The position numbers and the translations under genes were made by a program. From positions 96,001-160,000 of the forward strand of contig OY970065.1 in NCBI GenBank assembly GCA_963705295.1: DNA of 64,000 nt, given 5' to 3'. Below are positions 12,232 through 13,714 of this stretch, in pieces (position 1 is the first letter of the stretch; each line of letters begins with the position of its first letter). The DNA is from Parachlamydiales bacterium. GTDB taxonomy: Bacteria > Chlamydiota > Chlamydiia > Chlamydiales > Rhabdochlamydiaceae. The notes under the pieces are model-generated. The model worked only from the letters and a program-made list of their open reading frames with translations. It did no database searches and was not told the DNA's origin.

Positions 12232-12876
12232 CTAAGACTTTATTGTACGTGCAATAAAAAATCCAACAATAGGTACATCCGGAAATTCAATCCTCAAAAA
12301 ATCGTGAATGGCTCGAAAATGTGTACCCTTGGTTAAAATGTCATCAAAAAGCCATATTTCTTTTGGTATTGGGGATACGACTTTTTGATTGAGATAATAA
12401 TTGGATGCAAGCTCTTGAGGAGCTCTAGGAAAATTGGTCGAATGAAAAGGGGCTCTTGTCTCTTTTTGCAAAATGAGTTCTCGGATATCTCCCTTCGGCA
12501 TGAATGAGAATAACATTTTTAGATTCCGATCATCGTAAAGGGGGGAATCCTTTGACATGGATGGAGGAATAGGAACTAAGGTTGATGATTCAACTCGATC
12601 AGCTAGATTAAATGCGTTAAAAATTGAGGAGCGAAATAACTCCGCTGCTTGCTGAATGGCCTTTTCTTTATAGCTCCATTCAGGCAGTCCTTTTCGATCC
12701 AAAGATTTTTTGTAATTTAAGATTAATTTATTAATTTTACTATATTCTGAAAGAGCTCCGACCGTATACTCACCGAGAAAATAGATTTCGTCCTCCATTT
12801 TCAAAAATGTGTGACAATATTTTACAAATTCATCTGCTTGCTTAAGAAGTAGCTGGGAAGTAGTTTCGTAGATCAT
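12232..12876 (-). CDS. Type I phosphoribosyltransferase-fold protein (ShosT-like toxin candidate)
   Basis: LVPIPPS and PRPP-binding loop IWLFDDILTKGTHF. No N-terminal CxxC zinc ribbon. Overlaps the DprA-like gene. Confidence 0.75.
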   Translation of the reverse strand: MIYETTSQLLLKQADEFVKYCHTFLKMEDEIYFLGEYTVGALSEYSKINKLILNYKKSLDRKGLPEWSYKEKAIQQAAELFRSSIFNAFNLADRVESSTLVPIPPSMSKDSPLYDDRNLKMLFSFMPKGDIRELILQKETRAPFHSTNFPRAPQELASNYYLNQKVVSPIPKEIWLFDDILTKGTHFRAIHDFLRIEFPDVPIVGFFIARTIKS

Positions 12877-13714
12877 CGTACTCTTTTAATCGGATAGCAC
12901 CTTGTTCTTCGAATTTTCTTGGCCAGGTTAGATTAGGATTGAGAAAATTATTTTCAAGAATAAATAGCTTTCTACCCTGTTTTAAAGCCGCTCTTGCTTG
13001 TATCAATGATCCGGATGTTTCACCGGCCTCAACAATAATAGTTGCTTCCGTTAAAGCGGACATCGTCACATTTCTCTCCGGAAAGAAAAAACGATTCGTT
13101 CGATAGGTTTGTTTTGAATAATGCGAAAAAGGAACTTGGCTAATAAGAAGATGGTCTTTTGCAATTTTTTTCTGTAGATTTTGATTTTCAGAAGGATAAT
13201 AGCAATTCAATGGTGTTCCAATAACTGCAATCGTAAAACCATTGTTTTCTATAGCAGCATTATGAGCAGCAGTATCAATACCTTTTGCAAGGCCAGAGAC
13301 GATAATAAACTTGTTTTGGACAAGTTTTCCGACTAAATATTCAGTTCTTCGGATACCTTCTTGAGAGGGTTGACGAGTTCCGACAACTGCAATGCTAGGT
13401 AAATATGTTAATCCCCAATTTCCCTGAAAATAGAGAATATTAATAAGATTGTGGGCGTCTTTCAACCTCTCAGGAAATTCGCCATCTCCATAAACTCTAA
13501 TACCAAAATTGGGAAGATCTTTAATGATGGGCAATAATTTCTCCCTGTATTGCTCCATCGTTTGTGTTTCTACTAAACTAGATGCAAGGCAAGGATAATC
13601 GTGAAGTTGTTTGGATAATGATCGAAAAGTTGAATTGGGTCTATCCCATAATGCTTCGTAAGCTAGTAACTCATGAAGGGGGGAAATAGGCTTATATTTA
13701 CTCTGAAGACTCAT
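12842..13714 (-). CDS. DprA/Smf-family protein (ShosA-like antitoxin candidate)
   Basis: IAVVGTR, IVSGLAKGIDTAAH, FFPERN and IIVEAGETSGSLIQARAA motifs. The protein ends right after the Rossmann-like domain. Confidence 0.9.
   Translation of the reverse strand: MSLQSKYKPISPLHELLAYEALWDRPNSTFRSLSKQLHDYPCLASSLVETQTMEQYREKLLPIIKDLPNFGIRVYGDGEFPERLKDAHNLINILYFQGNWGLTYLPSIAVVGTRQPSQEGIRRTEYLVGKLVQNKFIIVSGLAKGIDTAAHNAAIENNGFTIAVIGTPLNCYYPSENQNLQKKIAKDHLLISQVPFSHYSKQTYRTNRFFFPERNVTMSALTEATIIVEAGETSGSLIQARAALKQGRKLFILENNFLNPNLTWPRKFEEQGAIRLKEYDDLRNYFPATS

Follow-up and report, generated by a model that had tools for sequence, protein, structure and literature searches.

The name shosTA reportedly goes back to Kimelman 2012. 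Rousset et al. tested a pair from E. coli APEC O1 whose toxin, as described there, has 424 aa and is composed of HAD and PRTase domains (PMC9122126). Both structural papers deal with this two-domain ShosT type, for which no binding between ShosT and ShosA was found, and describe D331/D332 of ShosT and R139 and R234 of ShosA as essential in E. coli ShosTA (PMC11961720, PMC12961424). An E. coli ShosT PPase mutant is reported to be still largely toxic, with the PPase domain aiding toxicity only modestly, and the idea of an ssDNA sensor was proposed for ShosTA earlier. The PsyrTA/RqlHI systems also combine a DprA-like antitoxin with a PRTase-dependent toxin. In RqlH, a protein of ~690 aa, a RecQ helicase is fused to a PRTase; the isolated PRTase domain of RqlH is reported not to be toxic, and RqlI co-precipitates with RqlH via the PRTase domain (PMC4670107). 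The same two folds are found in the competence proteins DprA and ComFC (PDB 3UQZ, 7P0H), of which ComFC is described as needing a four-cysteine zinc finger (PMC9005727). In our literature search, Kimelman 2012 and the bioRxiv supplements apart, we came across neither a chlamydial ShosTA nor a functional test of a compact pair; those two sources might contain one or the other.

The DNA analyzed here, chlamydial by its gene content and, as a stretch of 64,000 nucleotides, referred to as the window, carries a compact DprA+PRTase pair that is likely a relative of the known ShosTA and is predicted to differ from it in mechanism. [quoted passage not shown]

The compact gene pair and its relation to ShosTA

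The genes and their immediate neighbors are located in the window as follows.
13746..14510, minus strand: dapF, upstream neighbor marking the inversion breakpoint; TIGR00652 above cut-off
12842..13714, minus strand: DprA-like gene encoding 290 aa, the probable antitoxin/sensor in a compact ShosTA-like lineage
12842..12876, minus strand: 35-nt overlap of the two genes, read from the sequence
12232..12876, minus strand: gene for a stand-alone type I PRTase of 214 aa, the probable toxin
11163..12215, minus strand: sctQ (T3SS C-ring), downstream neighbor; FliMN_C and TIGR02551 matches

Both open reading frames are intact, with the lengths and the 35-nt overlap given in the original prediction. The overlap suggests translational coupling, and similarly tight DprA/PRTase junctions occur in most of the 77 paired loci described below. 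The DprA-like gene begins ~32 nt after dapF, and sctQ follows the PRTase gene after 16 nt. The G+C contents of the DprA-like gene (37.2%) and the PRTase gene (36.4%) place them at the 2.9th and 1.6th percentiles of 1332 long ORFs. The corresponding values are 43.8% for the whole 2.13-Mb genome and, for dapF, 46.1%. The sampled lines on which AT-richness had first been noted (35% and 52% GC) were read correctly but overstate the contrast compared with the whole-gene values. Sequencing run X1 provided three short contigs, one of which is identical to the window and covers 13646-13986 across the dapF-dprA junction; it may come from the source sample, and its coverage ends short of the PRTase-sctQ junction, which is known from one assembly (GCA_963705295.1).

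The DprA-like protein matches the PADLOC ShosA model PDLC03961 with 309 bits (E=6.7e-93) and Pfam PF02481 at residues 71-275, and structure comparison returns the DprA fold. On TIGR00732 it scores 169.7 bits, below the cut-off of 191.15. As first read, the protein lacks a C-terminal extension and ends with the Rossmann domain; its 290 aa compare with mostly 340-420 aa, stop to stop, for the open frames of canonical chlamydial DprA. E. coli ShosA, the control, scores 284 bits on PDLC03961. Canonical DprA proteins reach 198-216 bits against 281 for the same region of the DprA-like protein; the model is thus not specific, which counts against a ShosTA-like TA reading. By alignment, R114, R214 and R241 correspond to the ssDNA-binding R139, R234 and R261 of E. 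coli ShosA, and R114 and R214 are invariant in 79/79 relatives. At 26% identity, the alignment also indicates that the RecA contacts K200 and R206 of E. coli ShosA are replaced by S175 and Q181, while the dimer residues L181/F182 are not retained, and these altered residues count against the ShosTA-type reading. Among the relatives, 54 of the 79 have K or R at the column equivalent to K200. A motif, E..AYE.LW, is present in all 79 compact-type DprA proteins and in 0/37 others.

The PRTase matches the PADLOC ShosT model PDLC03962 with 113 bits (E=3.9e-33, profile 12-212 of 237), for which the controls are 180 bits for E. coli ShosT and 28-39 bits for ComFC. The protein is a single domain (structure model pLDDT 93) with neither a HAD/PPase domain nor a zinc finger; FDDILTKGTHF, the motif originally pointed out, lies at residues 177-187, and the lack of CxxC is borne out by a single cysteine in the whole protein. 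The PRPP-loop residues D178/D179 are invariant in 87/87 sequences and align with D331/D332 of ShosT. The best fold match is H. pylori ComF (7p0h; Z 13.3, rmsd 3.2, 163 aligned), followed by ShosT (Z 10.2, rmsd 3.2, 158 aligned), with ordinary PRTases at Z of 8.7 or lower. That the top structural match is a competence protein rather than ShosT counts against reading the PRTase as a ShosT-like toxin. Profile comparison gave a probability of 93% for chlamydial ComFC and 5.5% for E. coli ShosT, both over the PRPP loop only. The alignment with ShosT is likewise reliable only in that loop, and the ShosT PRPP contacts H240, K280 and R285 lie outside it. A Pfam search with the PRTase returned no match, a PHROGs search only one weak family of unknown function and PDB sequence searches nothing significant. 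In a scan of metagenome contigs with the single protein, 0 of 332 pattern matches were confirmed.

The two adjacent genes match PDLC03961 and PDLC03962, a combination that constitutes the broad PADLOC definition of ShosTA, the matches being to individual profile models apart from PADLOC's system rules. In common with the ShosTA of E. coli APEC O1 and KTE181 (PDB 8ZVA-8ZVD, 9VZO), a DprA-like gene directly precedes a PRTase gene, both genes match this model pair, the PRPP-loop DD and the three ssDNA arginines are present, the PRTase fold is ComF-like (Z 10.2) and carriage extends to the P2 hotspot. In contrast, the E. coli toxin has 424 aa with an N-terminal HAD/PPase domain as opposed to 214 aa without one, the antitoxins are 26% identical and differ in RecA-contact and dimer residues, and no mutual binding is found for the E. 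coli proteins whereas it is predicted for the compact pair. Moreover, the narrow ShosT model PDLC03012 gives no match here and PDLC02997 only 72 bits. The label of a ShosTA-type pair therefore holds as regards the model matches and the gene architecture, but not as regards the tested ShosTA with its 424-aa PPase+PRTase toxin: the cassette falls under PADLOC's broad models, misses two features of the characterized type and likely differs in mechanism by prediction. With PsyrTA/RqlHI the pair shares the DprA-like antitoxin, the PRTase-dependent toxin and antitoxin binding through the PRTase domain, measured for RqlHI and predicted for the compact pair; it differs in lacking a helicase domain and a PsyrT match, and PsyrA scores only 89 bits.

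The compact lineage, its phylogeny and its decay

The compact lineage comprises 879 clusters at E < 1e-30, and of the best 150 PRTase relatives 149 have 187-268 aa. DprA lies directly upstream of the PRTase in 77/80 genome loci from many phyla, two of the other three ending at a contig edge, and in 26/29 viral loci. Two of the remaining viral loci are cut, and in the third (L227) the DprA gene lies downstream of, and convergent to, the PRTase gene. Compact copies were found in 9 phage and 17 plasmid records. Two such pairs, from Burkholderia phage Mana (NC_055863) and from plasmid B of E. coli M11 (NZ_CP010208), belong to the same clade (100/99) and agree with the chlamydial cassette in sizes, order and tight junction, with DprA 49-55% and PRTase 35-36% identical; they differ in being carried by a phage and a plasmid of proteobacteria, and are annotated as DprA plus PRTase or hypothetical protein. 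In the P2-like phage Mana the pair lies between the integrase and cos, and thus near the cos-adjacent hotspot in which P2 defense genes are described to reside (Rousset et al., PMC9122126). Phage SopEPhi carries a 193-aa PRTase and a DprA in reverse order beside the portal gene (orf14-orf15; L199:1172-2720), a pair of a different lineage outside the compact clade. The first 212 residues of a 566-aa protein (P0186) are a compact PRTase, fused to a further C-terminal part.

Trees were calculated from 116 rows after removal of 8 duplicate or partial loci, with clade supports taken from a 36/116-row tree. Compact DprA forms one clade (100/99), within which the chlamydial compact copies are a subclade of 10 rows (100/100). 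Comparison with competence DprA, proposed at the outset as a check, shows no clustering with chlamydial canonical DprA, and the AU test rejects that grouping (p=2e-150). The same test does not reject placing the compact proteins and long ShosA together in a single clade (p=0.42); an origin of compact DprA separate from that of E. coli ShosA was considered and is unsupported by this value. The up to four nearest ORFs at 30 non-chlamydial loci, with Pfam matches read by eye and without a matched control, include a restriction-modification, TA or defense-type gene in 10/30 cases and a mobile-element gene in 9/30. A competence-linked gene, a comM-like fragment, appears in one of the 30 (L181).

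Among the 80 genome loci, both genes are intact in 61. The PRTase is broken beside an intact DprA in 11 (L110, L119, L133, L170, L171, L174, L176, L177, L183, L184 and L189), and DprA is broken beside an intact PRTase in one (L167). In L173 both are broken, four loci are cut by contig ends, L159 has no DprA and a PRTase without its first 21 residues, and L169 probably has a twelfth broken PRTase. The bias of 11 against 1 corresponds to a binomial p of 6e-4 by gene length, or 2.4e-3 when L159 is counted against it; related genomes and perhaps sequencing errors among the loci weaken the statistic, although sequencing errors would tend to dilute such a bias rather than create it. The PRTase is thus usually the broken gene, as expected of a toxin.

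These data bear on the possibility that the pair is a non-toxic recombination or DNA-uptake module, in which DprA and a ComF-like PRTase restore ssDNA loading in the absence of canonical dprA. Canonical dprA is absent from this genome and from 13 sampled congeners, 12 of 13 other sampled congeners have no DprA at all, and the cassette supplies the only DprA of this genome; across the phylum, 95/400 genomes pass the Pfam cut-off for DprA. The genome also contains comEC, comFC and recA, and ComF is the best fold match of the PRTase. However, as originally remarked, no competence genes are nearby, the genome's own copies being far away at 723.8 kb (comFC-like), 817 kb (comEC) and 327 kb (recA), at the following contig positions.
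G000:C1:723795-724301: comFC-like gene
G000:C1:817280-818071: comEC
G000:C1:326686-327477: recA
The PRTase lacks the zinc finger that ComFC needs, a native comFC exists elsewhere in the genome, and kinship with chlamydial canonical DprA is rejected. Like competence DprA/ComFC, the pair has both folds, and these proteins are its best structural matches; it differs in the missing zinc finger and DprA C-terminal extension, the score below the TIGR00732 cut-off, and its separate, mobile and patchily distributed clade. Together with the single competence-linked neighborhood and the toxin-first decay, this makes a competence role of the cassette unlikely and the uptake module highly improbable.

Predicted complex and proposed mechanism

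The model of the DprA-PRTase complex scored 0.75 (0.73, 0.87, 0.75), compared with 0.01 for the best of three controls. The mark for this score was reached by 116/157 solved and 2/215 mismatched pairs, counts that are only a rough guide with our own alignments. The runs share at least 60% of the contacts, and the partners have pLDDT of at least 82. PDB searches returned no solved DprA-PRTase complex, which renders success of the model by memorization less likely, though still possible. In the predicted core contact, residues 9-14 of DprA meet residues 10-18 and 32 of the PRTase; this contact lies in the putative hood region of the PRTase and away from both the DprA arginines and D178/D179. Core contacts are 89-100% conserved (DprA S11 and P12; PRTase L11, D15, Y32, E36-T38 and S46), and the E..AYE.LW motif, which is limited to the compact lineage, adjoins those of DprA. 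The PRTase interface as a whole is marginally more conserved than the rest of the protein (0.69 vs 0.59, p=0.06). The whole DprA interface, in contrast, is less conserved than the rest of DprA (0.60 vs 0.71, p=0.019), which counts against the predicted complex. The co-precipitation of DprA-like RqlI with RqlH is a precedent for DprA-PRTase binding. Judging from the model, the DprA-like protein may well bind the PRTase directly.

A competing explanation is an indirect type IV TA system as in E. coli, in which no complex forms and DprA offsets DNA damage by the PRTase via ssDNA and RecA. It agrees with the lack of ShosT-ShosA binding in two papers (PMC11961720, PMC12961424), with the retained ssDNA arginines and a recA gene in the genome, with K or R at the K200-equivalent column in most relatives (54/79) and with the AU test, by which compact and long ShosA may share one clade (p=0.42). 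The complex model with its large distance from the controls (0.75 vs 0.01), the loss of both K200 and R206 in the DprA-like protein and the restriction of the contact motif to the compact lineage argue against it, and we regard this explanation as rather improbable.

As to the toxin itself, the isolated RqlH PRTase domain is non-toxic, and a stand-alone PRTase therefore need not be toxic; the largely toxic ShosT PPase mutant supports toxicity of the PRTase on its own, which is quite likely. Under the preferred reading of a directly bound toxin, the PRTase would use D178/D179 to bind PRPP; once released or activated, it would perturb nucleotide metabolism and cause replication damage, like E. 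coli ShosT. The N-terminal S-P motif of DprA would dock on the PRTase hood and leave the ssDNA-binding arginines free, and the complex so held would keep the toxin in check. The toxin may then be released or switched on by ssDNA of the phage, or because DprA is lost upon host shut-off, with abortive infection as the outcome.

Chlamydial copies and the type III secretion neighborhood

Traces of the cassette occur in 9 of 400 scored chlamydial genomes (a set that excludes G005), nearly always at different sites. Intact pairs are present in this genome (G000) and in G281, G240, G196 and G172, an intact DprA with a broken or deleted PRTase in G355 and G259, and PRTase remnants without DprA in G387 and G132; no intact PRTase without DprA was found among the 400. 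A weak match in G147 proved to be native ComFC and was removed from the counts. We take the sites to be mfd-efp, next to uvrA, next to a purM-like gene and, in two cases, downstream of tRNA-Ser(TGA). A tRNA was present at 2 of 13 chlamydial loci scanned, with none at the site in this genome, and no integrase travels with the chlamydial cassette. In G259 (L070:5061-8155), where a large deletion leaves only the first and last PRTase codons beside the intact DprA, the cassette adjoins a PADLOC PDC-M02A/B pair and tRNA-Ser(TGA) in a small defense island. L119 comes from a record titled Verrucomicrobiae, but its flanking genes are 54-75% identical to genes of the chlamydial genome studied here, and the chlamydial clade includes its cassette; it is probably chlamydial DNA.

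Chlamydial copies have a DNA identity of 56-73%, with pS of 0.65-0.84 and pN of 0.15-0.34, which indicates that they are old and under purifying selection. The proposed horizontal acquisition stands in so far as the cassette is ultimately foreign to chlamydiae, as it branches within cassettes from phages, plasmids and many phyla, but it is not a recent arrival: a single old chlamydial clade and near-saturated synonymous sites exclude this. The chlamydial subclades track host families f1 and f7, so that within-family spread is indistinguishable from inheritance accompanied by loss and relocation.

In congeners, dapF is followed by ald or a SNF2-like gene, and the order dapF, SNF2-like gene ... 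sctC, pkn5, sctQ, sctP is seen in 8/8. An inversion of ~20 kb, present in this genome only, has turned sctQ to face the cassette and dapF and accounts for the position of the cassette between them; sctP is now 20 kb distant and precedes a lanthipeptide cluster. No repeat longer than 10 nt joins the compared stretches at both breakpoints, which gives no support to the idea that the cassette brought about the inversion. The breakpoint after sctP (G000:C1:86760-94860), which immediately precedes the window, contains the lanthipeptide-like cluster and three genes unmatched in the congener stretches compared. The cluster presumably consists of a short Cys-rich ORF, a LanC-like ORF and a LanB-like ORF. 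Between sctP and sctQ, congeners carry, as TA or defense candidates, AbiEi/AbiEii (G169; L102:4329-5802; PADLOC E of 6e-88 for AbiEii and 1.5e-69 for AbiEi) or an HTH-M78 (RmrA-like) gene with a PDC-S70-like partner (G355; L101:12411-14133), and G355 has HigBA after dapF-ald (L100:5408-6063). In this genus, the sctP-sctQ gap has the appearance of a hotspot for cargo. The notion of a cassette locked in front of essential T3SS genes finds no support in this comparison, given that the inversion is confined to one genome, that other TA pairs occupy the site in congeners and that other copies of the cassette have decayed.

Two further elements, both on the minus strand, concern transcription.
12216..12231, minus strand: 16-nt PRTase-sctQ gap, in which the congeners' sctQ promoter motif is missing
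13721..13749, minus strand: promoter-like TTGACA-17-GATATT, 10/12 matches, best of the scan
A promoter motif precedes sctQ in 14/16 congeners; it is absent from this genome and also does not occur after sctP. With this motif lost, sctQ-pkn5-sctC are likely read from upstream, through the cassette. Such read-through could fix the promoter of the cassette in place, though not the coding sequences; an alternative is read-through from the dapF operon. The promoter-like site overlaps the dapF stop codon with its -35 box and ends 6 nt before the DprA start, a spacing that would give a leaderless or nearly leaderless transcript. The promoter scan total for the region is at chance (10 vs 6.5±3.2). An exact TTGACA with a -10-like hexamer lies shortly upstream of 5/10 chlamydial cassettes, four of the five being close kin from one subclade, compared with TTGACA at 51/1152 ORF starts genome-wide.

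The cassette might instead be a selfish or stress-related TA module without an anti-phage role in chlamydiae, serving addiction, stabilization of nearby DNA or persistence. Toxin-first decay fits addiction equally, HigBA, AbiEi/ii and the HTH-M78 pair occupy the same sites in congeners, and functional type II TA modules are described in Waddlia, from which, as far as the source goes, no phage is known. Nor was phage evidence found for the present host. On the other hand, the tested DprA+PRTase systems ShosTA and PsyrTA are reported to defend against phage, and the compact type is carried by temperate phages. We consider a purely selfish module distinctly improbable and putative phage defense, rather than mere selfish maintenance, fairly probable; the two roles are not mutually exclusive.

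A more far-reaching reading would be that the compact lineage is a mechanistically separate ShosTA branch with a preformed complex, in which DprA acts as jailer and ssDNA sensor, without a PPase domain or a need for RecA repair; that chlamydiae acquired one copy in the distant past, which keeps moving among their chromosomal sites; and that in this genome the cassette promoter replaced the lost sctQ promoter and now drives sctQ-pkn5-sctC. All of these parts holding jointly is unlikely. If a copy acquired so early were still moving, environmental chlamydiae would be under real phage pressure, perhaps from ssDNA phages. To our knowledge, the known chlamydial phages are ssDNA Microviridae.

According to two surveys, the known anti-phage systems are almost or entirely missing from Chlamydiae (PMC9090908; bioRxiv 2022.05.11.491447). 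An intact, selected ShosTA-like clade in environmental chlamydiae, together with AbiE and the other candidates, would show that this result reflects the genomes sampled. The mechanism of ShosTA rests so far on the two-domain E. coli protein, and a widespread single-domain predicted toxin with a predicted complex and named interface residues would offer a minimal system for the acceptor substrate and the trigger of ShosTA.
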